Assembly: GCA_043767805.1 (NCBI GenBank)
Contig: JAYUGC010000192.1
Span: 1 to 20,224, forward strand
DNA length: 20,224 bases
Direction of reading: 5' to 3'
From: Pseudomonadota bacterium
Lineage (GTDB): Bacteria; Bdellovibrionota; FAC87; UBA2466
Part shown: piece after piece, positions 2,648 to 15,585 of the stretch
Numbering within the stretch: the stretch's first letter is position 1
How the letters are laid out: every line of letters begins with the position of its first letter
Position numbers and translations under genes: made by a program
The notes under the pieces: generated by a model
Told to the model about the DNA's origin: nothing
Seen by the model: the letters and a program-made list of their open reading frames with translations, nothing else
Databases searched by the model: none

Positions 2648-3898
2648 TCAGTTCTTCAGGGCGTCCCGGAGCTCCTCGTTTTCGAGAATTTCTTCGGTAA
2701 GGGTACCGTCGGGATCGCCATGCTGACGGATGTGTTCGCGAAGCTTTACGTTTTCTTGATCGAAGAAGTTGTTAACCGCCGGGCTACCACCCGGGCGTTC
2801 GTGATATTTCTGCAGGATCTTCTTTGAAGTCTCTGGCTCGGTGATCTTTTTCAGAAGGCTCGTCGCCTCTTCCTGAGCGATGCGGCGGTCGGACGAAAGC
2901 AGGAAAGTAGTGGCCTTCACCACGCCAAAGGAAGCACTCGCGATGGCCATGCCGAAATAGATATTTCGCAAAGTGGAAGCGCCATAATTAAAGCTGGCGC
3001 GGCTTCCAAAGGTGGACCAAAGATGCTGGCGAAGCCCACCCGGCTGTTCTTTCTCCGCCAGCCAGAGATCGCGTCCCTGAGCGGTCAGGTGGTATCTCTT
3101 CAGCGGATCATAGGTGGGCCAGGCTAGCAGGAAGGGAAATCGCAAGCCGGCTTTCCACCACTGAAACTTCGGAATGGTATCGGCTGGTAAAACAAGGGGC
3201 TCTTCGAAGTGCTGATTCCACTCGTGAACGAAGGCGTAATCTCTCTTGGCCGAATTCTCGACCACATCGATGACCTGTTTCGGATAAGAAGCGTTGCTAC
3301 TGCCGAAAGGGAGACTTCGAATCGGGGAGCGTTGCCGGAGCTCCGCGACTTCAGCCTCGCGTACGGCTTTGGCTAGGAAAAGGAGATTGTCCCTGACTTC
3401 GCTCATGGCTTTTGGAGCCTTGTGAGGAAAGTAAAGGGCGAGCCGAGTGGGACTTCGCCGAAAAACCCCTCCCCATTTGAGAGTAGCACCTGGCGCACGT
3501 GCCCAGGGCCAGAGAAATTTCTTACCAACCGTTTCCACCGATTGGGAATCACGCAGCTGCTTCAAGGCTTCGCTCAAAAGCGGGCCTTCCCCTTGAATGG
3601 CATCGAAGAGCGCGACCTGGCTCTCGAGAGAGGGATGCTCCTTGATCGCTTTGAGAATCGCCACATCTCTCTCGGCGCCCGAGGAAGCGCTCAAAGTCAG
3701 CTTCCATCGGGCCAAGGCTTCCGCCGAAGCGTCAAAATCGAAAGCTATTTTAGCGGGAGGGGCGGAAACGTTTTGTTTGGTGGGCGCCGAGCCGGCGAGC
3801 TGGCGAGCGGCAGGCGCGCACTCAGGAAGACCGCCGGAATACGCAAAAGGCGCACCAAAAAGGAGGAAGAAGAATAGAATTAGGCTTCTACTTTTCAT
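2648..3898 (-). CDS. Secreted or membrane-associated hypothetical protein, 416 aa
   Basis: Start moved from 3958 to ATG 3898. That gives the signal peptide MKSRSLILFFFLLFGAPFAYS and an 11-bp overlap with the upstream gene, whose stop is at 3888-3890. There is a hydrophobic segment NIYFGMAIASASFGVVKATTFLL in the C-terminal third and a single Cys (ECAPAARQL). Confidence 0.8.
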   Translation of the reverse strand: MKSRSLILFFFLLFGAPFAYSGGLPECAPAARQLAGSAPTKQNVSAPPAKIAFDFDASAEALARWKLTLSASSGAERDVAILKAIKEHPSLESQVALFDAIQGEGPLLSEALKQLRDSQSVETVGKKFLWPWARAPGATLKWGGVFRRSPTRLALYFPHKAPKAMSEVRDNLLFLAKAVREAEVAELRQRSPIRSLPFGSSNASYPKQVIDVVENSAKRDYAFVHEWNQHFEEPLVLPADTIPKFQWWKAGLRFPFLLAWPTYDPLKRYHLTAQGRDLWLAEKEQPGGLRQHLWSTFGSRASFNYGASTLRNIYFGMAIASASFGVVKATTFLLSSDRRIAQEEATSLLKKITEPETSKKILQKYHERPGGSPAVNNFFDQENVKLREHIRQHGDPDGTLTEEILENEELRDALKN

Positions 3899-4931
3899 CG
3901 GTTTCAGCGCCGCCGATATCGTACAGGGGTTTGAACCAAAGAAGTTCGGTTTGGGCATTTAACGTAGTGGCTTCGCCCACCGAAATGCCGAAAGGCTCGT
4001 AAACGTAAATGTCCGAGCCGAGATAAGGAACGTACTCGTAGCCTTTGGGCCCGGTCCAGGCGAGATGGCTCCCGCTTCCGATGCGCTTATGCATGGAGCC
4101 CATCCAAGTCCCGCCGTTTTTGGAGAGGGTGGTCGTCGTGGGCAGCGGAATTTCGACCGCCCATCCCTGGTACAGACCTTCGAGATCGCTCATTTTAACT
4201 TTCTTGAAGTTTGAGTGATCGCTAACGAGAAACTCACTTCCGCCGAAGGAAAATTCGAGTTTTCCCTTTTCCTTCTTCTCAATTTGTCCGCCCATGAAAA
4301 TACTAAGCACCGCTTCCGTTTTCATGGCCTTGCCGTCGGTGACATCCATCCGATGACCGAAGGTCAAGCAGAGACGCCCTTTGAGTCCGGCAGTGACCCA
4401 TTTGATTCGTAGCAGACCGACTTCGGCTCCAATAAAACAAACGTTATAAGCAGCCACCAGAAGCTTGGTCCCCTTTTCGAAGCCAAAATCTTCCGGTTTC
4501 TTTTCCAATTTCTTATGGGCTTTGGCGGCCTCCATCACTTTCGTTCTTTTGTCCGCAATGAGCTTGAGAGCCTTTTCCTTGTCCTCGGAGTCCGGGCGCG
4601 CCTTGATCTCCGCTTCCTGGTCGTCGAAGAAGGCAATGACGTCACGATACAGTCCAAGAGCCTCACCCGGGACGAACTCGACCTCATGCTTCAACTTGGG
4701 ATCGACGACTTCCGGCACTTCGCCTTTTGCCCCATTGAGCCCGTTTTCACTCGGCGCGAGGCCCGTGCGGTCGCCCCCGGGAGCCGCCTTAGCCTCTTCA
4801 TGAGATTTACCGGTAGCCACCGGGCTGACAGGCTGGCCACGCTCAGAGCCCCCTTTGGGGCCGTCCTGCGCCTGCAGGGTGCTGGCGGCGAGGCAGAGTA
4901 GGCACAAGATATGAAGTTTTGAGCGTGTCAT
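3888..4931 (-). CDS. Secreted hypothetical protein, 347 aa; low-complexity N-terminus and beta-rich C-terminal domain
   Basis: Start moved from 5054 to ATG 4931, which has an RBS-like AGGGG just upstream and gives the signal peptide MTRSKLHILCLLCLAASTLQA. The C-terminal half has alternating Gly/hydrophobic strands and two Cys. Confidence 0.8.
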   Translation of the reverse strand: MTRSKLHILCLLCLAASTLQAQDGPKGGSERGQPVSPVATGKSHEEAKAAPGGDRTGLAPSENGLNGAKGEVPEVVDPKLKHEVEFVPGEALGLYRDVIAFFDDQEAEIKARPDSEDKEKALKLIADKRTKVMEAAKAHKKLEKKPEDFGFEKGTKLLVAAYNVCFIGAEVGLLRIKWVTAGLKGRLCLTFGHRMDVTDGKAMKTEAVLSIFMGGQIEKKEKGKLEFSFGGSEFLVSDHSNFKKVKMSDLEGLYQGWAVEIPLPTTTTLSKNGGTWMGSMHKRIGSGSHLAWTGPKGYEYVPYLGSDIYVYEPFGISVGEATTLNAQTELLWFKPLYDIGGAETDEK

Positions 4932-4981
4932 GAGTCCCCTATCGTCCATTCCCGAGCTTTGGTTTGATCTCCGTAAATTGT

Positions 4982-4997
4982 TGCAAATTGCGTTCCC
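4982..4997 (-). promoter_or_regulatory. Putative sigma-54 (RpoN) -24/-12 promoter for the 347-aa/416-aa gene pair
   Basis: The minus strand reads GGGAACGCAATTTGCA, i.e. GG-N10-GC with TTGCA, close to the consensus TGGCACG-N4-TTGCW. It lies about 50 bp upstream of ATG 4931. Confidence 0.6.
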
Positions 4998-5183
4998 TGC
5001 TACCCGAAACGGCGTAGGCACGGCTTTCTTCGCGCACGCATCGAATACAGGCATCGGCTCTGTCCAAGTAGCAACAAGATGTCCACTAATGGAATTATTT
5101 CGAGGGTCCAGGCGGACGAGGTTTCTCGATCTTATTGGTTATGACGACGATAAGGATGGGATTATCGACGATTAAAGAGCGCG

Positions 5184-5211
5184 CGAGGAGGCACCGGCGG
5201 TGCCTCTCTCG
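5184..5211 (-). terminator. GC-rich hairpin downstream of the 594-aa gene; possible terminator or mRNA 3'-end stabiliser
   Basis: CGAG-GAGGCACC-ggc-GGTGCCTC-t-CTCG forms an 8-bp perfect stem extended by 4 bp past a bulge. It lies 25 bp after the stop at 5237. The U-tract on the minus strand is weak (CGCGCTCTTTAA). Confidence 0.45.
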
Positions 5212-5236
5212 ACTGGAGATAGGCGAATTTCAGAAA

Positions 5237-7021
5237 CTATTTCTTGGGACGAGTCCCACGAATGTCCGAAAGGACTCGGCCAAAACGAGCGAGGATTTCC
5301 ACTTCCCCGTCCGTGGAGCGAATGTCTTTGACCGTCTGAGTGACGGCTTGAAGCTCCGCTTCGGTGAGGTCCATCCGGAGAGCCGTATCGAAAACTTCCC
5401 GGATCTCCTTCAGTTTCTCTTCCCGCGTCACTCTGGTGAAATGCCGGTTGATCACCGAATCTCTCAACCGCTGCAATTCCTTCGTCGCGTCGTGCGGAGC
5501 CGCCTTCACAGCGGGTGCTTCTTCCTTTTCCGCGACAGTCTCGGTTTTGAGCTTAGGAAGCGGCACTTCCTCCTCCACGTAGGAGACGGGCACTTTGGTA
5601 TCAATAGCGGTAAGGGTCATTCTCCCCGCTCTCGAGCGGTCCACAGTCAGCACTAGCGCGAGATGTTCTCCCGTCGGCAGTACCGCCATCGTCATATAAT
5701 GCTGCTTCGCAAAGCCGGTGGTGGGTTTTCCGCCGTAGACTTCTCGGGCGATCTCCCTAATTTTTTCCATCGGACCAGGCAACTCCGGCTTCGTTTGACC
5801 GCCCTCACTTTTAACTATTTTGGTAAAGTTCCGGGCAACGAGCGTTCCCCCAAACTTCTTGCAGGCGGCGGCTCCCACAAAACCACCAGCCGCCAGGCCT
5901 GCGGCGAATTCAACGCCGGTAGCCCCGTATCGAGATAGCCCTAGATACTTCTCCCCTTTGCGCCGGAGCTCATCATGAGAAAAGACGCCTTTGAACTCAT
6001 AGGCGTCAGGATGTTCGTTCTTCTCTCTGCGAAATGCCGAAAATTCGTTATTTAAAGTCGTCTGATTGACGTGGCCGGGCTCCCGGTAAGCCAGCTGCCT
6101 TTCCCATCTCGTGACGGCCTCCATGCTGAGGGAGTACTCGCTCTCGCTTTCGCGGCGTGCGATGTTCGAAGGAGCATAAGCGATATCTCTAGCGCCGAAC
6201 CGAGGCGTATTTCCCACCTTCGCTTGAGCTTCAAAAAAATTTCTCTCCGCAGTCATCGCGGACTCGATTTGCTGATCCGTAACCGTGCCCTTGGACTTCA
6301 GATCGTTTAAAACACCGCGGTAGAGCTCGAGATGCTTATCCACCGTTCCCGCGACGGATTGACCGGCTTCCTTGAGAATGGCGCGGTCGACTGTCGCCTC
6401 TCTGTTTCCTATCATTTCCACGGCACCTACTCCAGCCGCGAGACCAAGTGTGCCACCGGCGCCCAGCACACAGGTGAGAAAACCGCTCTGTTTGAGTTTC
6501 GAATCGTATTTAATCTTCGTAAGGACTTCCATCGTCTCCAAAAGGCTTTTGATGACTTCGTGATCCGAGGTCGAAAAGTATCCGGCGTCGCGCAGCCCAT
6601 TGCCCTCTTTTTCCAGGCTCTTTCGGACGGCCCCGACACGCTGCTTCAGAACGGTGTAATCCTCTTCGGACAATCCGCCTCTGGTCGCGGACCGATCGCC
6701 AATTTCATAGGAGGCTAAAAGCCCATGGTCGTCCTTCGCGGACACCGGCGGACGCTCGCCGCTCAATTGACCCGTTCGTTCGGCCGCAAGAGAGGATTGC
6801 ATGTCGCTCTCGATGGCATCCTCCAGGAGCTGGAGGTGGGCAATCGCATTCGCCCCGGCGGAGGCTCGCTCCTCAGGGCTCAATCCATCGACCCCACGCT
6901 TTATAAGATCCGACATCGCAAACGCGCACACACTACTCATGTGCTTACCGTCATCCGCGAAAAGAAGACGGCTTGGCATCACTAGCGTAGCGATAAGATA
7001 GGCTAGCAAAAGAGCGCGCAT
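5237..7021 (-). CDS. Secreted hypothetical protein, 594 aa, with two Gly-rich hydrophobic helices; paralog of 10772-13042
   Basis: The ATG is 3 bp after the stop of the AAA+ gene, with RBS GGAGG. Signal peptide MRALLLAYLIATLVMPSRLLFA. Gly-zipper-like segments FLTCVLGAGGTLGLAAGVGAV and GVEFAAGLAAGGFVGAAAC. Collinear similarity to the 756-aa protein. Confidence 0.85.
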   Translation of the reverse strand: MRALLLAYLIATLVMPSRLLFADDGKHMSSVCAFAMSDLIKRGVDGLSPEERASAGANAIAHLQLLEDAIESDMQSSLAAERTGQLSGERPPVSAKDDHGLLASYEIGDRSATRGGLSEEDYTVLKQRVGAVRKSLEKEGNGLRDAGYFSTSDHEVIKSLLETMEVLTKIKYDSKLKQSGFLTCVLGAGGTLGLAAGVGAVEMIGNREATVDRAILKEAGQSVAGTVDKHLELYRGVLNDLKSKGTVTDQQIESAMTAERNFFEAQAKVGNTPRFGARDIAYAPSNIARRESESEYSLSMEAVTRWERQLAYREPGHVNQTTLNNEFSAFRREKNEHPDAYEFKGVFSHDELRRKGEKYLGLSRYGATGVEFAAGLAAGGFVGAAACKKFGGTLVARNFTKIVKSEGGQTKPELPGPMEKIREIAREVYGGKPTTGFAKQHYMTMAVLPTGEHLALVLTVDRSRAGRMTLTAIDTKVPVSYVEEEVPLPKLKTETVAEKEEAPAVKAAPHDATKELQRLRDSVINRHFTRVTREEKLKEIREVFDTALRMDLTEAELQAVTQTVKDIRSTDGEVEILARFGRVLSDIRGTRPKK

Positions 7022-7024
7022 GGT

Positions 7025-10000
7025 CTATTTCCCTCCGATGCCGATTTTGGGAATTAGATCCGACGCCCGGACGGGATGCCACTCCACGCCTTTTCTCGCG
7101 CTCAAGGGGATGTCTCTATCCAAGATCCGGCGCAACGGGGTCGAACAACCTCCCCATCGAACTAAATTGGTAAGGACTCCCGGCCGAAGGCTCTCATAAA
7201 GGTCATCGTACTTGGCCGGATTACGAACCAAGCTGGCGAAAAGCATTAACATGTTCCGCCGCCCGATTTTTTGCAGCGAAGGAAAGAGGTTGACGACGTA
7301 CTCATCGAGATTCTTTTTGGCCTCGTAATCATTCTTGAGCCACAAATACAGCATGCCTAAATTGTACCCTTTGCGCGGAGTCGCCCTGTTGACGGCTTCC
7401 ATTATCTCGTCGCGAATCGAATCTCTCATTTGCGGATCTACATTCCTATAAAACTCCGCAAAGTCGCTGGTAGGGTCTCCCGCGGGAAGTTTTTTCACGA
7501 ACTCGTGAAATTGATCGAGCTGAGTTGCTCTGGCTTCCGTGGCTTTCGCCGCCAGGAGGTTTCTCTCGCCTTGAGTGCTCTCGAAAGCCAATTTCTTTTC
7601 CAGCTCCGCTTTGTCGACCTTGGCCTTTGCGTCCGCCTTCCTTTGCTCATCCAGTTCTTTCAGAGTCGCGGGAACCGCTTCCGCGGCGTAAAGGGACGGG
7701 TTCTCGGCGGCCCAAACATAGGATCGTTTGTCGGGATACTCCGCTTCCGCCTGGAGATCCTTGGAAGGCCTAAAATGATGGAGATACCCTGGGCCGATAA
7801 CCTTTTTACTCGTATATTTTCCCCAGTTTTCGGCGGTCGCCGCCCCACGAAGGATCTTGCCGCCCTCCTGCGTATACTCGGGATGCATCGTCCTCAGTTT
7901 GAGAACGTTATTATCTCCGTCCAATTTTTCATTGATGATACCGATATTCATCATGATGGGAGTACTCGGGTTTTTAGCCCGTTCGGTATCCACGTAAAGG
8001 TTAAGCTGGGTAAGCAAGTCGCCCATCACTTGCCTTACGTGTTCGATGACGACGTTGGGTCCCAATTCCGCGCTGTCCCCTTCCCGGACGAACAAGGCGG
8101 GAACATTTTCATGAATGAAGAGGTCGCCGCTGAATTTGACTCCCTCGCTTATCTTCTTGCTCTTCCAATCCTCGTACAAATTCTTCATCGTGGTCGTTGC
8201 ATGATTTAAGAGAAGCGGAGCCCTGGCGGGACCAATAAAGACAGGCCCCCGCGCTCCCTCGAGTCTTCTTCGGGTAGAGCCTTGAGGTCCATGGGCCGCC
8301 GTTTCACTAATCAAGGGCCTAAAGAGGTCCGGGAAATGCTCGCTGAACATTTCGGCAGGCCAGGACGCAAATTCGGGTCTTCTTAAGAGCTCGTCGTACC
8401 AGTCAGCATACTCATTCCAGCCTACCTTGCGCCCACTCGCGAGAACGTTGGCAACCCGCTGCTTAATTTCCTGCTCTAACTTGAGCACATTGGTGGTCCA
8501 CACTACCAGCATGTTGCCGAAGAATTTGCCGTTGGTCGTAACTGAGAAATTCGTCACGGCCTTTCGCACGATTTCTCGGGCGGCCGTGGGATTCATCGCC
8601 AGCATCTGGGCGAACTGAATTTTTGAGTCCTTCGAGTTCTTGAGATGCTGGATCCAGTCTTCCGGATTATTTTTGAATCTTTCGAGGCGCTGCGCAAAGT
8701 CTTTTGAAAATTCGGCAAGTTTTCCGGCATCCAGCTCGTTATTGACGAAATCCTGGACCGCATGGATCGCCGCGGTGGTTTCCAGAGCATCATCAATCGA
8801 TCGTTCGTAGTCCTTTTCGAGCTTAATCAGTTCGGCGAGCAAGGCTTCCGTCTGCTTCATCTCATCCCGGTGAACCTGCTGTTCCTTTTTTCCCCACGCC
8901 TTTTTGGTCTCGACGCTGTCTTGTACGGCCTTCTTTTCCCTGACAATTCTTGGCTCGAGGTCGGCAAGGTCATGGTCCAGCTTGGTGATGTGCCCGGTGA
9001 GAGCGTCGGCCGCCATTTTCCGGAACGCATTGATACTCGCGTTCAAAGACGCTTCTTTTGCCTCGACATAGCCAACCGTGCCTCTTCGAGAGTGGCTGGG
9101 ATCCGAGGTGAGATCCTTCATCATTTGCTCAAAAAAATCAGGAAGCGTGGGAGAGCCGTTTCGTAGCCGGCGGATCTCATCTTTCTTCCCATGGGTCTCG
9201 GCCCAAAGCTCAATTTGTCTGGGGCTAGCGTCCTCAAAGTCCTCGAGAGTTTCTTTAAGAGTTTCCGCCTTTTTCAAGAGGCTCTTGATTTCCGCGTCAG
9301 AAGCACTCAACTTCGTTTCCGCCTCCTTGATTTTCTGCTGCAGCTCGGCAGCTTCCTTCAGGAGAGGATCGTGTTCATACTTCGCCTTGAACTTAGCTAG
9401 CCTTTGAAACGTATCTTCAATTTCTTTTTTGTGAGATTCAGCCATTTGCTGTTCCTCACCTTCTTCAAACGTGCCTCCAGAAAGGGCACTCCAAAGTTTT
9501 TTGGTGAAATTGTTTATTTTGTCGCGGGCGCGTCTGTCCGTCTCGTACTTTTCACGGCGCTTTGTCGCTAATTCTTCATAAGTTCGCTTGAGTCCCTCGG
9601 CATCTTTTGCCTCACCAAGGGCGAGAGCGGCTTGCCAGTCATTTACCGCCGTGGCGTACTCTCTAAGATGATCCCGGTACGCTTCATAATTGCCGCCAAA
9701 TTCGCTCTCATCCCGCTGAACCGGTTTTTCCTTGCCTCTCGGTTTCAGTCTCTTTTCCTGCACCGCGATCCACGTTTCTTTGAGGTGATCGAGGTCCCTA
9801 TTCAAATCTTTCTCGAGGTCTTTGGACGGGCGCGCGAAATGGGAAGCTTCATCAAACCCGATTACGGCTGAAGTATCCAGGAAAAGCTCAAAGCGCTTGG
9901 TGAAGGAAAGCTTGGGGCCATTGATGGCCTCTATTTCCTTGAGGTCTTTGCCGTATTCGTCGACGATCGTGAGGTTCATTTCCTTCGTCGCGGTTCCGTT

Positions 10001-10429
10001 TTGAATGCCTTTTCGATTCTTGCGGAGAAGGCCGAGCTCTTCTCGCCATTTGATGAAATCCTTGAGCATCGCCGATTTACCGCCACCGGTGATGCCGCCA
10101 ACTTGCAAAAAGTTCAGATCTTGCGTGATTTCCTCACGAGAGACCAAGTCGAAAAGCGGCTTCATGAAAAAATCGATTTCCTGGCGGATCGGCTCATTGA
10201 GAAGAGGAGACATGATGTAGTCTTCATGCCCTAGATATTTGTTTACCATTCGCCGTCTGAGCTCATTGACCTTGATGGTGATTTTGGCTTTGAGCTCCGA
10301 GTCCGCATCGATGGTGCTGGATTGATTGGAATCAGTCTTCGGCGGCTCCGCCCAAGCGGAGTGCGCCACGAGCAAGAACAGTAGCGTCGGCGCGACAAAT
10401 CGAAATTTTAGAGTCTGAGCTCCAAACAT
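7025..10429 (-). CDS. Signal-peptide-bearing AAA+ ATPase-like protein (ClpB/ClpA second-domain or torsin-like fold) with large helical/coiled-coil insertions, 1134 aa
   Basis: Signal peptide MFGAQTLKFRFVAPTLLFLLVAHSAWA. Walker A G112-ITGGGKS119 (10073-10096), Walker B VIGFDE (9848-9865), sensor-1-like NMLVVWTTN647 and Arg-finger-like STRRRL occur in the order seen in ClpB NBD2. Confidence 0.75.
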   Translation of the reverse strand: MFGAQTLKFRFVAPTLLFLLVAHSAWAEPPKTDSNQSSTIDADSELKAKITIKVNELRRRMVNKYLGHEDYIMSPLLNEPIRQEIDFFMKPLFDLVSREEITQDLNFLQVGGITGGGKSAMLKDFIKWREELGLLRKNRKGIQNGTATKEMNLTIVDEYGKDLKEIEAINGPKLSFTKRFELFLDTSAVIGFDEASHFARPSKDLEKDLNRDLDHLKETWIAVQEKRLKPRGKEKPVQRDESEFGGNYEAYRDHLREYATAVNDWQAALALGEAKDAEGLKRTYEELATKRREKYETDRRARDKINNFTKKLWSALSGGTFEEGEEQQMAESHKKEIEDTFQRLAKFKAKYEHDPLLKEAAELQQKIKEAETKLSASDAEIKSLLKKAETLKETLEDFEDASPRQIELWAETHGKKDEIRRLRNGSPTLPDFFEQMMKDLTSDPSHSRRGTVGYVEAKEASLNASINAFRKMAADALTGHITKLDHDLADLEPRIVREKKAVQDSVETKKAWGKKEQQVHRDEMKQTEALLAELIKLEKDYERSIDDALETTAAIHAVQDFVNNELDAGKLAEFSKDFAQRLERFKNNPEDWIQHLKNSKDSKIQFAQMLAMNPTAAREIVRKAVTNFSVTTNGKFFGNMLVVWTTNVLKLEQEIKQRVANVLASGRKVGWNEYADWYDELLRRPEFASWPAEMFSEHFPDLFRPLISETAAHGPQGSTRRRLEGARGPVFIGPARAPLLLNHATTTMKNLYEDWKSKKISEGVKFSGDLFIHENVPALFVREGDSAELGPNVVIEHVRQVMGDLLTQLNLYVDTERAKNPSTPIMMNIGIINEKLDGDNNVLKLRTMHPEYTQEGGKILRGAATAENWGKYTSKKVIGPGYLHHFRPSKDLQAEAEYPDKRSYVWAAENPSLYAAEAVPATLKELDEQRKADAKAKVDKAELEKKLAFESTQGERNLLAAKATEARATQLDQFHEFVKKLPAGDPTSDFAEFYRNVDPQMRDSIRDEIMEAVNRATPRKGYNLGMLYLWLKNDYEAKKNLDEYVVNLFPSLQKIGRRNMLMLFASLVRNPAKYDDLYESLRPGVLTNLVRWGGCSTPLRRILDRDIPLSARKGVEWHPVRASDLIPKIGIGGK

Positions 10430-10485
10430 GGAATAAGCCCCGGGAAAATATTCGTTTCAATTTAGTGCTTAGCGAAGAATGATTT

Positions 10486-10501
10486 TGCAAGGCTTGTGCC
10501 C
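10486..10501 (-). promoter_or_regulatory. Putative sigma-54 (RpoN) -24/-12 promoter for the AAA+/594-aa operon
   Basis: The minus strand reads GGGCACAAGCCTTGCA, i.e. GGCAC-N5-TTGCA, a near-consensus match. It lies about 57 bp upstream of ATG 10429 in an AT-rich 340-bp intergenic region. Confidence 0.7.
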
Positions 10502-10771
10502 ACCACCAGACCACAGCGTACGTGCCTGAACGGCTACGGGATTTCCGGGCCGTCCACCTCGGTGTGTACATTCTTTGACTAACAGAATACGAACAGGGTC
10601 GTGTTCTCGCGGTCTAACTCTTTGAAGTTTCATTTGTATTCACAGACTGTCCGGTTTTTGATCAGTCGTTTCTTTATGTAACCTACTGAAATTCAATGAA
10701 GAAAGCGTGGAGAAGGATCCGCGGACGTGGTTTTTTGGGGATCAGGAGCGTTTAAATTTTAGGAGAGTATT

Positions 10772-13042
10772 CTAGAACCCGCCGAACCCGCTGCCCCAGG
10801 GGAGGCTGTTGTTCTGGCGGCTGCGGCGCGGACCGTCGTAGAGGAACGCATAGAGGTCCGGCGGCAGACCGTCCCAGGAGGGACGAGGGAACTTAATCAT
10901 CGGACTCTCGCCCTCTTCCTCGCCCATGGTCCGAAAATAATGAGTCGCTTTTAGCGCGTCCCTCAAATAATTTTCGGCCCCTTCGAGACTCCATTCGTAC
11001 TCTTTTTCCATGATCGTTTCGCCGGCTTTTTCGAACGCAGCCAGCTCCATGGGACTCATATTCAGCTCGCGAGCGATGGCGAAATCCCGCCTTATCACGG
11101 CTTCGATTTCAGCGCGGGTCGCGAACTTTTGCGTTATCCAGCTCTCCACGTCGCCCTTGGTCAGGAGCTTTTTGGTGTCCAGCCGCTGCTCCATGCGATT
11201 GATCACGCGCTCGGGACTTCGGAAATCAGAGATAGTAGGAACATAGATCGATGAGGTGTCCTGAGGGTACTCGAACCGGCCTCGGCGCGCGTCCTCTTCT
11301 TTTTGCCTCTTGTCTCGCGCGTCCGCAAGACGCCGCCGTTCCTTTTTGATGTCGATGAGGGTATGCCGAAGCCATCTTAGCTCTTCATAGCTATGGATCT
11401 CGCCGACGGTTTTTGCCCATATTTTCAACTCCGCGGGCGTGAGCTTGAGACTGGTTGCCTCCGAAAAAGTTTGGTCAATGAGATCACTGGGCGCTTGAAA
11501 CTCTTCGCCGACGTGACTGGTGAAACGGTGAGTGATGAGCTTCCGTTTGAGGAGTCCCAATTCGACGTCCGCCGACACATGGGGCTCCGCCGGCGGGGGA
11601 TCGTAGTCCATAACGATTGGCTCCCCTTTGGGAACCGCGGGAGAAAAGCTTAGCCCGGTAAGTCTCACCTTGGGGATACGGCCGGTCCGATCAATTTCCA
11701 ATAGGAGCGTGGAATACGTTCCGTCGGGATTCTCGCTGTCGAGCCAAACCGTCTCTTTCGCGAAGCCGGGCTTTTCCCGCTCGACGGCGCGATCGACTAC
11801 CCCGGCAAGCGCGGTGTGGATCTTTTTCAAGGCGGGAGATACTTCGGTCGGCACTACTTTTTCAAAACCCGGCAACCCTATTCGTTCCGCAATCTGGGTG
11901 CACGATAAGGCCCCGGTCACTCCGCCCAGTAGGAGGGAAGGAACCGATAGATAAGTCGTCATTCGTTCGTAGTTCGCATGAGCGCTATCTGCACCCAAAC
12001 GTATGAGCTCGTCTTCGTTCAGGAGGCCATTTCTCTTGGGAGTGCCGTATTTATTGTAGTTCTCGTCGTTATGAGATTCGGCCAGCTCCTTTTTCATGTC
12101 CAATCTTCCGGGCGTCTCGGTCGTGGAGTAGGTGCTTACCGGTGCCCGGCTGTAAGCGGCCAGATCACGGGCCCTGTCCAAAAACTCAGCTTTCGACACG
12201 CCCTTCAGAGCCTCATAGTCGGTAAATCGATTGTGGTAAGCGAAGGGGCGCTTGTCTGCTTTTTCTTTGCCCACGACGCTAGCCGAGTACTCCTTAATCC
12301 ACTTCTCGCCGTCCGGCATCTCTTTGACGGCCAGCCGCAAGCGTTCCAGGTGACCTTTTTCATCCCGAACCGTCGTCGCCAAAACCTCCTTCTGGATTTC
12401 ATCCGCGGGCCTGGCATTGGGATTGTTGTAACGTCTAATTCCAGACATCAAGAAATAGCCCGCGCCGGCTGAGAGCGCGGTACACCATCGATTCCACTTG
12501 GTTCTATTTTGCTGGCGCTCATCCAGGTCTTTTGCGTTTCTTAGTCTTTCGCCTTTCTCAAAAAAATCTCGGATCGACTCAGGTGTTTCTTTCTCCAAGC
12601 TCGTCTCGAAAAACTTGAAATCGACCACTTGGGGACTCGAAGTATGCAACTGTTCGGCAAGTCTCGAAAGTCTAGCTCTTAGCCGATCGAAATCGCGCGT
12701 TTGCATCGCGTGGTCGGAACCCTCGTAGTCTCCCGTGTGATAGGTGACTTTCGAGCCCTCGGCTCCCTCCTCTAAAGGAGGAGCCCGCATTTGGCTGGAC
12801 GCACCCAGCGTAACATCCTGAGCCCCCAGCGTGGCCTTCTCCTCGGCGTTAATGAGGGACTCGAGGTGCTTCATGAATTGGTAGGCCGCAGGATAGTTGC
12901 TATGAGAAGGATCAGCGCGTTTCACGACCTTGGCCAGCGCGGCACAGCACTCTCCCACCGAACAAACTGCGGAATCACCAAGGGCAAGGGAGCCCATAGT
13001 GATGCCGAAAATCAGGAAGAATATGTTAAATGGCCGATTCAA
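10772..13042 (-). CDS. Secreted hypothetical protein, about 756 aa; paralog of 5237-7021 with a duplicated C-terminal helical domain
   Basis: Start moved from 13141 to TTG 13042, preceded by AGGGGGCAGGGGAGA. That gives the signal peptide (M)NRPFNIFFLIFGITMGSLALG. It shares collinear motifs with the 594-aa protein. The exact start is uncertain. Confidence 0.8.
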   Translation of the reverse strand: MNRPFNIFFLIFGITMGSLALGDSAVCSVGECCAALAKVVKRADPSHSNYPAAYQFMKHLESLINAEEKATLGAQDVTLGASSQMRAPPLEEGAEGSKVTYHTGDYEGSDHAMQTRDFDRLRARLSRLAEQLHTSSPQVVDFKFFETSLEKETPESIRDFFEKGERLRNAKDLDERQQNRTKWNRWCTALSAGAGYFLMSGIRRYNNPNARPADEIQKEVLATTVRDEKGHLERLRLAVKEMPDGEKWIKEYSASVVGKEKADKRPFAYHNRFTDYEALKGVSKAEFLDRARDLAAYSRAPVSTYSTTETPGRLDMKKELAESHNDENYNKYGTPKRNGLLNEDELIRLGADSAHANYERMTTYLSVPSLLLGGVTGALSCTQIAERIGLPGFEKVVPTEVSPALKKIHTALAGVVDRAVEREKPGFAKETVWLDSENPDGTYSTLLLEIDRTGRIPKVRLTGLSFSPAVPKGEPIVMDYDPPPAEPHVSADVELGLLKRKLITHRFTSHVGEEFQAPSDLIDQTFSEATSLKLTPAELKIWAKTVGEIHSYEELRWLRHTLIDIKKERRRLADARDKRQKEEDARRGRFEYPQDTSSIYVPTISDFRSPERVINRMEQRLDTKKLLTKGDVESWITQKFATRAEIEAVIRRDFAIARELNMSPMELAAFEKAGETIMEKEYEWSLEGAENYLRDALKATHYFRTMGEEEGESPMIKFPRPSWDGLPPDLYAFLYDGPRRSRQNNSLPWGSGFGGF

Positions 13043-13084
13043 TCTCCCCTGCCCCCTAAAAAAATCGAGTCCCCTGTATTCCCA

Positions 13085-13100
13085 TGCAAAACACAGGCTA
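13085..13100 (-). promoter_or_regulatory. Degenerate sigma-54-like element upstream of the 756-aa gene
   Basis: The minus strand reads TAGCCTGTGTTTTGCA. It has a good TTGCA -12 box at a similar distance from the start as the other two sites, but AG instead of the invariant GG at -24. Confidence 0.25.
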
Positions 13101-13222
13101 AGTTCCAGCCGGGATTTTTTCTCCGTATTCTGTTCGTCCACGCCCAGTCTTTGGACAGCCCGCCGATTCGAAAGCGTGCAAACTCACGATTTACGGGCGC
13201 TTTCCGCCGTTTGTCGCGACGC

Positions 13223-13257: not shown

Positions 13258-15585
13258 GTGCTTCCCCCACGCCAAAAGTCCGTGAAAAACACTCCCTGGT
13301 ACGGTGCAGCCAGCCTGCCTCCTTGGCGAGCCGCCGGGCTAACTTTGGCGTTCACCTCATTGTGGGTTCTGTTTTCCCTGACTCCGCTCGCGGAGTGGCT
13401 GAATTTACGCATCGAGACCCGACTCGATTTCCGCCTGCGCCAGATGGTCGGCCTCGCGCCGCGGCTCCACCCGAAGCTGAAGATTTTCGCGGTCGATCCG
13501 GCGGCACTCGCCGCGGGAGACTTGGAGTACGTTCCTTTTTCCCTCTGGACGTCTCTCTTGAAGAGTCTGGGAGAGATGAAACCGAAAGCGATCTTGGTGG
13601 ACAAGATCCACGCCCCGCGCACGACCGACGCCGCTCAGCTGAACCTCTTTCTTCGCGGCCCCCATCCCTACGGCGGAGTCACCTGGTCTGCGACCGAGCG
13701 AGAAGACTGGACTAGATTGCCTAATGACTGCTGCGGTTTTACGTCCGTCCTTGGCGCGACCAAAACGGGGACCACCCGCAAGGGGAGTTACCTCTATGGC
13801 CCAAGCCTTTCCCTGCTCCCGGGATTCAAACGGCTCGGGCACACCGGCTTTCGCAGCGACGGGTACCTCGATCTGGTTTTGCGGCAACCCGGGGATTTGC
13901 TCATCCCGCACTGGTCGGTTCAATTTGCGGAGCCCTTGGTTTGGAGCCACGGCCGAGTGCTTGCCGCCGGCAAGGAGATCCCGCGCGACCGAAAAGGCCG
14001 CTCCCTTCCCAACTATCCGAAACCTGAAGTGACGGCGAGTACCGTACATAGCCTTCTGCCGCTTTTGCAGCGGGTCTTGAAGCAAGAGCCTGTCACCGGC
14101 ATCGAGGAAGGCGACGTGGTCGTGATCATGAACCACGCCTCCGAAGGAGATTTACCGACGATAGAAAGCCCTGTCGGCACTATTCCCGCGTTCTACGCCT
14201 CGCTCGCGATGACCAACGATGTGCTCACGGGGAAGTTTCTCAAAACCGTATCCCTTCCCGAGCTCTGGATCGCGCTGGGTTGTTTTGTGGGCGCCTGGCT
14301 CGGCTTCGTCTACTCGGCGGCGCCCCTGACGTCTTATATGATCTCGGCGCTCGGCCTCATTTCACTGGCGGGGCTACTCGCCTTCGCTTTCGCCGGCACT
14401 TTATTTCCGTGGCTACTCACCGCGAGCGGCTGCGGGCTTTGTGGCACTCTCGTCTTTCTCGAGAAAACCCGTCAGCAAGGCAGACTGCTTCGCAAGGTGC
14501 GGGGATCGCTGGAGGGCTGCCTTCCGAAGCCGGTGCTGGAAAGCATTCTGGAGAATCCAGCGACGCTCGATCTGACGCCCTCGACGCAAATCATTACCGT
14601 GATGTGCGTCGACATCCTGGGTTTTTCATTAAACGCCGAGCGCGAGTCGCCCCAAGGCGCGTTTCGCGTGCTTCGCCAAAGCATGGAAATTCTCACTCCC
14701 ATCCTCCACCGACACGGGGGCATTCTCGACCGCACGACGGGCGACGGTATCATCTGCTTTTTCGGCTACCGTTACGGCGAAGGCGGGAAGGTCGACTTGA
14801 ATCACGCCGAGTCGGCCGTCCGCTGCGCCCTCGAAATGCAACGGAGCCTGCTCGCCCAAAATGGGCGCAACTTCGCCCTAGGCTACGCGGTTTATCCGCT
14901 TCGCATCGGCGTGCATACCGATCGCGTCCACGTGGGCGACGCGGGCGCCACCGACCGTATCGAGATCGCGGTTTTAGGCAGCGGCGTGAACTTCGCCCAA
15001 AAGCTCAAGGCGGCGTGCGAGCCCTATCGGGTTCAGATTAGCTCCAGCACCCGCGACAGATTGCACGGTCTGTCGACGGAAATGCCGGGGCTTCACCAAA
15101 AATTCGTGCCGGCCGGGGATCGGGACGAGCTTTTCGACGCCTTCGAGATCAATCCGTTCTTCGAGGCGCCCGTGAAATTAGAGAGCTCTCTCGACCATTA
15201 TCGAAAAGGCGCCGAGCTGACCCGCCTGGAAGCGCGCTGGCCCATCGATTCGGTGGGCTGGATCTTTGCGGAATGCCAGTGGGGAAAAGGCGATGTCATC
15301 AACTTCTCCCGAGGGGGGCTCGCCCTTCGCCTTCCGCAATACTACGGGCTCGGCGTGACGTTTAATCTGAAGCTCAACTCCGGCAACGGAAAGCTGGCCG
15401 AAGCATGCCGCGAAATTGGCCTCCCGGTCCTTGCCGCCGAAGTCCGCTGGGGAAAGCCCGATCCGTCGGGTTACCTACACGGCATCGCTTTCAAGAATCT
15501 TTCCGTCGAGCAGAAGGAAAAGCTTTTCGAAGCCATCCACTCGCTCCACCTCACCCAGCCCGTTGCGAAAACGCATGCCGCCTAA
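13258..15585 (+). CDS. Membrane protein: N-terminal TM, CHASE2-like sensor, about 3 TM helices, class III adenylate/guanylate cyclase domain (non-canonical), C-terminal PilZ domain
   Basis: CHASE2-like motifs KPKAILVD, DVVVI and ESPVG..N.L.G.FL. Hydrophobic helices at about aa 335-400. Cyclase motifs ITVMCVDILGFS, GGILDRTTGDG and LRIGVHT...GSGVNFAQKL. PilZ motifs R656-LEA-R660 and N682-FSRGG. The start could instead be GTG 13282. Confidence 0.85.
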   Translation: MLPPRQKSVKNTPWYGAASLPPWRAAGLTLAFTSLWVLFSLTPLAEWLNLRIETRLDFRLRQMVGLAPRLHPKLKIFAVDPAALAAGDLEYVPFSLWTSLLKSLGEMKPKAILVDKIHAPRTTDAAQLNLFLRGPHPYGGVTWSATEREDWTRLPNDCCGFTSVLGATKTGTTRKGSYLYGPSLSLLPGFKRLGHTGFRSDGYLDLVLRQPGDLLIPHWSVQFAEPLVWSHGRVLAAGKEIPRDRKGRSLPNYPKPEVTASTVHSLLPLLQRVLKQEPVTGIEEGDVVVIMNHASEGDLPTIESPVGTIPAFYASLAMTNDVLTGKFLKTVSLPELWIALGCFVGAWLGFVYSAAPLTSYMISALGLISLAGLLAFAFAGTLFPWLLTASGCGLCGTLVFLEKTRQQGRLLRKVRGSLEGCLPKPVLESILENPATLDLTPSTQIITVMCVDILGFSLNAERESPQGAFRVLRQSMEILTPILHRHGGILDRTTGDGIICFFGYRYGEGGKVDLNHAESAVRCALEMQRSLLAQNGRNFALGYAVYPLRIGVHTDRVHVGDAGATDRIEIAVLGSGVNFAQKLKAACEPYRVQISSSTRDRLHGLSTEMPGLHQKFVPAGDRDELFDAFEINPFFEAPVKLESSLDHYRKGAELTRLEARWPIDSVGWIFAECQWGKGDVINFSRGGLALRLPQYYGLGVTFNLKLNSGNGKLAEACREIGLPVLAAEVRWGKPDPSGYLHGIAFKNLSVEQKEKLFEAIHSLHLTQPVAKTHAA

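Follow-up and report, generated by a model that had tools for sequence, protein, structure and literature searches.

Lone cysteines shortly behind the signal peptide, rather than a shared peptide motif, recur on unrelated exported proteins of a Pseudobdellovibrionaceae lineage

Introduction

DsbA-type oxidases make disulfide-linked envelope assemblies, for example the cross-linked outer-membrane complex of Chlamydia, and where a Dsb system is present, unpaired cysteines are as a rule avoided in the exported proteins. Terminal sorting elements have been described at both ends of exported proteins: in exoproteins of type IVb pili such as TcpF, an N-terminal export signal serves as a short sorting tag that follows the signal peptide, and the MYXO-CTERM type is a C-terminal, cysteine-containing sorting signal. 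Here we analyze a stretch of 20,224 nucleotides (the whole of contig JAYUGC010000192.1, positions 1 to 20,224 of its forward strand, assembly GCA_043767805.1, from a bacterium of the Bdellovibrionota), which we refer to as the window. On its minus strand, five adjacent genes at 2648..13141 each encode a product with a signal-peptide-like N-terminus, as judged by a crude predictor. A prediction made earlier from the sequence alone, below called the original prediction, had proposed that four of these proteins, thought to be otherwise unrelated, share the single-cysteine motif C-x-x-[AP]-[ALM]-x-x-[LVI] near one of their termini, and that this motif is a secondary targeting or tethering tag, i.e., a signal for a second export step, an acylation site, or a disulfide handle to a carrier. 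We found that one undescribed family conserves the cysteine (Cys), that a second has it by common descent, and that a third may keep it. We also found that unrelated exported proteins of the lineage carry a lone Cys shortly after the signal peptide more often than expected.

Results

Conservation of the cysteine in the family of the 416-aa protein

The exported protein of 416 amino acids (aa) is encoded on the minus strand at 2648-3898, or at 2648-3958 as a 436-aa form if the longest open reading frame (ORF) is taken. Its motif peptide CAPAARQL lies at 3797..3820, and the Cys, with the codon TGC at 3818-3820, is residue 27 of the 416-aa form and residue 47 of the longest ORF. By heuristic criteria only, the N-terminus has the positive n-region and the hydrophobic h-region of a signal peptide; Cys27 follows some six residues past an AYS↓GG site and is the sole Cys of the mature chain. 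The Cys-containing helix is succeeded by a helical domain of ~330 aa that includes a three-stranded sheet. A hydrophobic stretch follows, and the protein ends in a helical hairpin that bears a GDPDG motif. The family is small, with two paralogues in the source genome, members in 5 of 34 genomes of the taxonomic family, and 32 matches to the 416-aa protein among 1.84 billion representative proteins. Our family alignment comprised 33 sequences, namely the window protein, 31 of the 32 matches, and the member from a genome of the same genus (G001); the sequence P0010, a 252-aa fragment of the window protein, was left out. Four rows lack the N-terminus, and the Cys column was counted over the other 29.

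In these N-complete members, the Cys column is invariant (29/29), although the relatives are only 15-41% identical to the window protein, and in 19 of the 29 it holds the sole Cys of the mature chain. The family pattern at this position is C-[P]-x-x-L-x-x-[LA], with Pro at +1 in nine and Leu at +4 in 14 sequences. The spacer between the hydrophobic core of the signal peptide and the Cys ranges from 0 to 20 residues and includes charged residues in 17 of the 29 members. A strict lipobox is found in none of them and a relaxed one in two, and the sites of the window (LPEC, SSVC, SAVC, and VGEC) do not conform to [LVI][ASTVI][GAS]C either. A lipoprotein reading of the post-signal Cys was therefore rejected, and the original prediction had been right in stating that the motif is not a lipobox.

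An AlphaFold2 (AF2) model of the 416-aa protein, based on the 33-row alignment, reached a predicted local distance difference test score (pLDDT) of 88.9 and a predicted template modeling score (pTM) of 0.74. Residues 20-50 were of low confidence, and the Cys opens a predicted helix (residues 27-36, pLDDT ~55) that precedes the confident domain. In the model, the Cys segment is thus a conserved but undocked, flexible N-terminal segment. A Foldseek search of the PDB with the model gave no fold match at E <= 0.001, and with VIA-align (wide) only the terminal helical hairpin was matched, with Z <= 6.5. The family is undescribed, and the Cys is under selection in it.

Lone cysteines across the genome and the lineage

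The source of the window is a 4.5-Mb draft genome (G000), for which we used our own heuristic gene calls (4098 genes, 88% coding) and not trained predictors; the signal-peptide heuristic is crude and is passed by 44% of the genes at its lowest threshold. We surveyed signal-peptide-like, non-lipobox proteins of at least 150 residues, with the six proteins of the block region of the window excluded, and 145 of them have a single mature Cys. This Cys is found at mature positions 1-15 in 27 cases, where a uniform distribution would give 7.2 (P 1.2e-8), and at positions 2-15 in 24 cases, where 6.7 are expected (P 1.8e-7). The next intervals are not enriched, with six cases each at positions 16-30 and 31-45 against 7.2 expected, and proteins without a signal peptide show no effect (18 at positions 1-15 vs. 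14.0 expected). The excess at positions 2-15 persisted when only signal peptides at the first start codon were accepted (17 vs. 4.6), when a stricter signal-peptide score was demanded (12 vs. 3.7), and when only polar Cys contexts were counted (22 cases). It was repeated in 800 kb of G005, a genome of the same family and another genus (7 vs. 1.4 expected, P 6e-4). In 1.6 Mb of G036, which belongs to another family of the phylum, the same pipeline gave no case at positions 2-15, with 1.4 expected, and the only two N-proximal cases have the Cys at +1 and are lipoprotein-like.

The carriers are mostly unrelated to each other, as judged by phmmer. The N-proximal Cys is kept in five of five orthologues of the family of the gene on contig C66, and in the single orthologue each of the genes on C155 and at C91:54500; for the lone-Cys proteins on C71 and at C115:15974, no orthologue was found in five relatives, and the one at C115:17873 gave weak partial matches only. 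The genes of lone-Cys proteins cluster weakly, with four pairs within 10 kb where 1.3 are expected (P 0.04). Exported proteins with at least two Cys have an even number in 165 of 245 cases, and one-Cys and two-Cys exported proteins are equally common (80 each). Proteins with a canonical lipobox, mostly L[AS][GA]C, number ~130 in the genome. With respect to the oxidation of thiols, VKOR and DSBA domains were found together in one 464-aa open frame (G000:C38:14237-15364), and there are further DSBA-family genes; DsbB was looked for in the genome and not found. A fused VKOR-DsbA protein is thus the probable oxidant of exported thiols in this organism. A search of the literature for Bdellovibrio-like bacteria in which a lone Cys behind the signal peptide had been described as a handle brought up none, and the terms cysteine, lipobox, amphipathic, and sorting gave no hit in a term look-up of one article (PMC12622784).

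A sub-motif with an aromatic residue, C-x3-[YFW]-x2-[VIL], which was defined after seeing the data, is present at 10 of 29 N-proximal lone Cys, compared with 1.6% of other Cys and with 5 of 108 lone Cys elsewhere (Fisher 6e-5), and an unbiased scan revealed Tyr at +4 in 6 of the 29 (P 1.3e-4; 0.02 after 160 tests). The mature chain opens with this sub-motif in about 20 signal-peptide-like proteins, of which 13 have a single Cys and most are unrelated, often in the form C-x3-Y-[GAS]-x-[VI]. Examples in the source genome are encoded at C115:15974-20176, C71:20769-22814, C146:4736-6973, C66:11188-12903, C155:10247-11752, C91:54500-55729, and C26:10344-11171. As a lineage-wide tag, the sub-motif was rejected: it was not replicated in G005 (0 of 8 cases), and the four sites of the original prediction do not fit it. 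A separate observation concerns a GlpD-like FAD enzyme (G000:C91:57161-58915; locus L049, 2662-4416), whose frame extends upstream into a signal-peptide-like stretch with a Cys motif. The orthologues in four relatives, as far as their N-termini were read, start about 40 residues later, and the apparent signal peptide is probably a start-codon artefact; otherwise, the gene would encode an exported flavoenzyme.

The eight-residue pattern and the 594/756-aa paralogues

The coordinates and peptides that had been given for the four sites proved correct, and all four lie on the minus strand. Besides the site of the 416-aa protein, they are CAFAMSDL at 6905..6928 (Cys codon TGC 6926-6928; Cys32 of the 594-aa protein), CSTPLRRI at 7124..7147 (TGT 7145-7147; Cys1095 of the 1134-aa protein), and CCAALAKV at 12926..12949 (TGC 12947-12949; Cys65/Cys66 of a 789-aa ORF, equivalent to Cys32/33 of its 756-aa form). 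Each of the four proteins matches the motif only once. The Cys counts had also been given accurately, with one Cys in the mature 416-aa chain and one, C1095, in the whole 1134-aa protein; the 594-aa protein has three in total, C32, C184, and C387.

That the carriers are otherwise unrelated, as had been assumed, is wrong for two of them. The exported 594-aa protein (minus strand, 5237-7021) and the exported 789/756-aa protein (minus strand, 10772-13141 for 789 aa and 10772-13042 for 756 aa) are full-length paralogues, with a BLASTP E-value of 6e-13 and 23% identity over 621 columns that cover the whole length. The 789/756-aa protein is longer by 190 aa at the C-terminus, and its 756-aa form would begin at a TTG codon at 13040-13042 that stands behind GGGGAGA; this start is plausible. 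C32 of the 594-aa protein aligns with C65, C387 aligns with C414, and C184 and C220 are two columns apart. Since motif Cys is thus aligned with motif Cys, two of the four sites represent one ancestral site, and we conclude from the alignment that the pair shares its post-signal Cys by descent. Cys32 of the 594-aa protein follows about ten residues past LFA↓DD, and the 756/789-aa protein has a further Cys five residues upstream of CCAALAKV. Both paralogues contain two glycine-rich hydrophobic stretches with one Cys in each; as firm transmembrane helices, these were rejected, for only one of them passes a Kyte-Doolittle (KD) threshold of 1.6, and does so at the border (residues 180-198 of the 594-aa protein, KD 1.61). 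Of 401 Bdellovibrionota genomes, the source genome was the only one in which the family was found, and a search of 5.8 billion proteins recovered nothing but the query, so that the paralogue is the sole comparison for the conservation of these cysteines.

The similarity of the four contexts lies within chance. They are the top-scoring set of four out of six proteins in the block (BLOSUM62 sum of pairs 25), but when sets of six signal-peptide-like proteins were drawn at random with their Cys counts matched, 64 of 1000 attained this score. Once the paralogues are counted as one, two independent triples are possible; they score 11 and 15, and 32% and 18% of the random sets, respectively, do at least as well. 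Across the genome, the motif follows some 0.8% of the Cys, wherever they are located. In signal-peptide-like proteins, it follows 8 of 593 Cys within the first 30 mature residues and 6 of 690 within the last 50 residues, compared with 64 of 8633 in protein interiors (Fisher P 0.14 for the N-terminal comparison). An enrichment at the termini of exported proteins was thus looked for genome-wide and not seen, and the original prediction had itself named this outcome, together with a Cys that is not conserved in orthologs, as speaking against the tag. The second of these outcomes was not observed for the 416-aa protein, in whose family the Cys is clearly kept; the orthologue of the 1134-aa protein has its Cys in another column. 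Relatives of the carriers do not keep the motif that surrounds the Cys: it is matched by just three of the 29 sequences of the 416-aa family, and not by the orthologue of the 1134-aa protein, which reads CLAAWAKM. A profile-profile comparison of the 416-aa family with the 594/789-aa pair was not significant (probability 0.7%, E 0.08), and that with the 1134-aa pair gave no match at the tail; a shared profile module was thus not seen. As the similarity is not beyond chance, two sites are paralogous, and there is no enrichment, the eight-residue pattern is not a common sorting or tethering signal. It is a post-hoc pattern that amounts to chance plus one gene duplication, and no real shared feature.

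The 1134-aa protein

The third carrier is an exported, signal-peptide-like, coiled-coil-rich protein of 1134 aa, encoded on the minus strand at 7025-10429, and its Cys1095 lies 39 residues from the C-terminus. Homologues are rare: among 401 genomes, the family was detected in the source genome, in G001, and as a fragment at a contig end in G014, with a weak match in G343 (E 1.1e-4), and a search of 5.8 billion proteins returned only the query. The G001 protein (1108 aa, 27% identity over residues 7-896) is the sole full-length orthologue. It also has exactly one Cys, C1088, 20 residues from its end; the two tails have RWG...W...D..KI in common, and their Cys are 12 alignment columns apart. This one comparison is suggestive of a kept tail Cys. 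Genome-wide, a lone Cys within the last 50 residues of exported proteins is not enriched (29 vs. 23.9 expected). A C-terminal sorting signal of the MYXO-CTERM/PEP-CTERM type was considered and rejected, as the 1134-aa protein has no hydrophobic 19-mer and no NCBIfam match at E <= 0.1.

The protein had been labeled an AAA+ ATPase, and this label is not supported: there is no Pfam or NCBIfam match, a PDB-sequence search with the profile gave no match, and AF2 modeled the N-terminal part poorly (pLDDT 63.8; below 50 around the motif). Two sequence motifs are conserved. GGITGGGKS at 10073-10099 follows the pattern GGxxGxGK[ST], VIGFDEASHF is also present, and the protein contains both Walker A GxxxxGK[ST] and Walker B hhhhDE; G84, G85, G88, K91, D166, and E167, in the numbering of the aligned segment (protein residues 28-340), are invariant in three orthologues. 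A Walker-A-like nucleotide-binding motif thus occurs on a protein that is exported out of the cytoplasm and matches no known family.

Genomic context

The stop of the 1134-aa gene is 3 nucleotides from the start of the 594-aa gene. The fifth gene of the block, a 388-aa ORF (minus strand, 3888-5054) with a probable start near Met42, likewise encodes an exported protein, and its 3' end, with the stop, shares 11 nucleotides with the start of the 416-aa gene. The 388-aa protein has no N-proximal Cys; its two mature Cys, 206 and 229, are both aligned and kept in its sole homologue. The gene of this homologue is found in another genus (G042:C212; locus L038, 4416-6557) directly upstream of a gene of the 416-aa family, in the same order and amid unrelated housekeeping genes. 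The two genes constitute a conserved module, whose products are probably partners.

The block is flanked on one side by the conserved gene of an exported 855-aa protein with a signal-peptide-like N-terminus (plus strand, 67-2634), and on the other side by a gene (13258-15585) for a 775-aa protein in which, according to Pfam, a CHASE2 sensor is joined to an adenylate/guanylate cyclase domain and a PilZ domain; a Dus gene also flanks the block. In G001, the 855-aa gene (79% identical) and the CHASE2-cyclase-PilZ and Dus genes are only ~2 kb apart, the interval holds other, unrelated genes, and the block is missing. From this gene order, the block at 2648-13141 is therefore judged to be a lineage-specific insertion of exported-protein genes. 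Its G+C content is 0.505-0.56, that of the flanks 0.59-0.615, and that of the whole genome 0.579. For the five block proteins and the 855-aa protein, Pfam and NCBIfam gave no match above threshold, and look-ups in the ESM Atlas likewise gave nothing above threshold. The mature chain of the 855-aa protein contains nine Cys, an odd number, and its orthologues (loci L026-L033) have AG[VIT]YSFGG[AG]C directly behind the signal peptide wherever a pattern search located this segment.

Discussion

We favor, with a probability of roughly 0.55, the view that the lone post-signal Cys is an exposed thiol for an intermolecular disulfide that has evolved family by family, and that there is no shared peptide tag. 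Selection keeps the Cys, which in the 416-aa family is invariant, usually unique, and apparently exposed on a flexible segment behind a signal peptide with a cleavage site of the signal peptidase I (SPase I) type. The VKOR-DsbA machinery could then oxidise such lone thiols to intermolecular disulfides, which may yield covalent dimers or tether the protein to a partner located in the envelope or on the prey. The eight-residue pattern would reflect the spacing i, i+3/4, i+7 that results in Ala/Leu-rich proteins when a Cys begins an amphipathic helix and lies on its hydrophobic face, plus one duplication. The Cys in the tail of the 1134-aa protein may act likewise, but the evidence for this is thin. 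The thiol-handle idea of the original prediction thus stays alive for the N-terminal sites, where lone post-signal Cys are recurrent and conserved, whereas its definition by sequence and its C-terminal member fail.

Several points weigh against this view. The intermolecular disulfide is a step that we infer, and conservation of a lone Cys would be just as compatible with a role as ligand, nucleophile, or acylation site. The control for the positional excess is a single genome of different G+C content (0.37), and the genomes that were compared are related and are no independent samples. Cleavage sites and some starts are uncertain because the gene caller and the signal-peptide predictor are crude heuristics. 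The 1134-aa protein has one orthologue only, with the Cys in a different column. Finally, the top hhalign alignment between the 416-aa family and the 594/789-aa pair, although not significant, does fall on the Cys segments of both.

A rival explanation, and a looser form of the original prediction, is an address or docking tag of the whole lineage, in which a lone Cys on a short amphipathic helix is read by one common machine or carrier, for a second export step into the prey or for disulfide docking, and marks unrelated proteins including those with the three N-terminal sites. It would account for the positional excess on mostly unrelated proteins in two genera that is not seen in the control, and the aromatic subset of the source genome and the weak clustering of lone-Cys genes fit it as well. 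We nevertheless consider it unlikely, as there is no common sequence: residue +4 is A, M, L, and L at the four sites, unlike the aromatic sub-motif, which itself is post hoc and did not recur in G005. Moreover, spacer length and context are variable, the profile comparison remained insignificant, C-terminal placement is not enriched, and no candidate for a recognition machine was identified. The Cys could also act within each protein, as a metal or cofactor ligand, as a nucleophile, or as a "cysteine switch" on an N-terminal propeptide, with no relation to sorting or tethering. Its invariance together with the nearby conserved Pro at +1 and Leu at +4 would agree with this, and the spacers of variable length could be propeptides. 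We regard this as quite improbable, since the Cys segment is not packed on the domain in the model, the same placement occurs in families unrelated in sequence, and the 33-row alignment contains no nearly invariant His, Cys, or Met column that could provide a partner; only A96, D99, and Y221 reach 90%.

Even less credit is given to an atypical lipidation, i.e., S-acylation or diacylglyceryl modification of the Cys by a relaxed Lgt or another acyltransferase to produce a membrane anchor. The position of the Cys just behind the signal peptide, at the start of a short amphipathic helix, is suggestive of it, as is the distance of two to three residues past an AXA-like site in four of the first five family members examined. 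However, the near absence of even relaxed lipoboxes in the family, the gaps of up to 20 residues with K, R, D, or E, and the use of canonical lipoboxes by the same organism all speak against it. That the Cys positions are incidental, and the excess an artefact of mis-set cleavage sites or starts, is hardly believable for the 416-aa family and somewhat easier to accept for the tail of the 1134-aa protein. The predictor is crude, the GlpD-like gene at C91:57161 probably has a wrong start, and some of the listed cases are membrane-like, yet the Cys column persists across highly divergent relatives, which already disfavors this explanation for the 416-aa family, and the excess survives all three filters and is not generated by the same pipeline in the control genome.

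A disulfide-forming thiol, as we favor it, may be part of a wider principle that we put forward tentatively and consider doubtful at present. Pseudobdellovibrionaceae would mark unrelated, fast-evolving exported proteins with one Cys 2-15 residues behind the signal peptide as a lineage-specific thiol handle for disulfide docking to a carrier, to each other, or to structures of the prey, so that sorting and assembly would be directed by the position of a residue and not by a peptide motif. In the window, the clients would be the proteins of 416, 594, and 756 aa, perhaps joined by the 1134-aa protein with the Cys in its tail. It is noteworthy that one-Cys exported proteins are as common as two-Cys proteins in this organism and show a preferred position of this Cys. 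As secreted proteins that are specific to the lineage of a predatory bacterium, the carriers belong to the class with the highest likelihood of acting on prey, and a covalent docking principle, if true, would offer a handle for finding the partners of proteins that otherwise cannot be annotated.

Among the described systems, the bacterial lipoprotein signal (L-[AS]-[GA]-C; Lgt, LspA, Lnt) resembles the sites studied here in having an invariant Cys behind a Sec-type signal peptide that is often the sole Cys of the mature chain. It differs in that here no lipobox is present, the Cys lies 0-20 residues past the hydrophobic core with charges in between, and a site of the SPase I type is found upstream. 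The MYXO-CTERM type shares with the 1134-aa protein and its orthologue a Cys near the C-terminus of an exported protein, but the Cys of the 1134-aa protein is not followed by a hydrophobic helix or a basic cluster, and its column is not conserved. The tags of TcpF-like exoproteins are likewise short elements that come directly after the signal peptide and are found within one lineage on exported proteins that are unrelated, whereas the consensus across families that could be shown here does not extend beyond the Cys and the helical spacing of hydrophobic residues. With disulfide-linked assemblies of the Chlamydia type, finally, the proteins described here have in common that they are exported, possess unpaired Cys, and meet an oxidising system, which here would be VKOR-DsbA acting toward a presumed disulfide; what sets them apart is that a single Cys is used at a fixed place near the mature N-terminus, in small families that are specific for the lineage.

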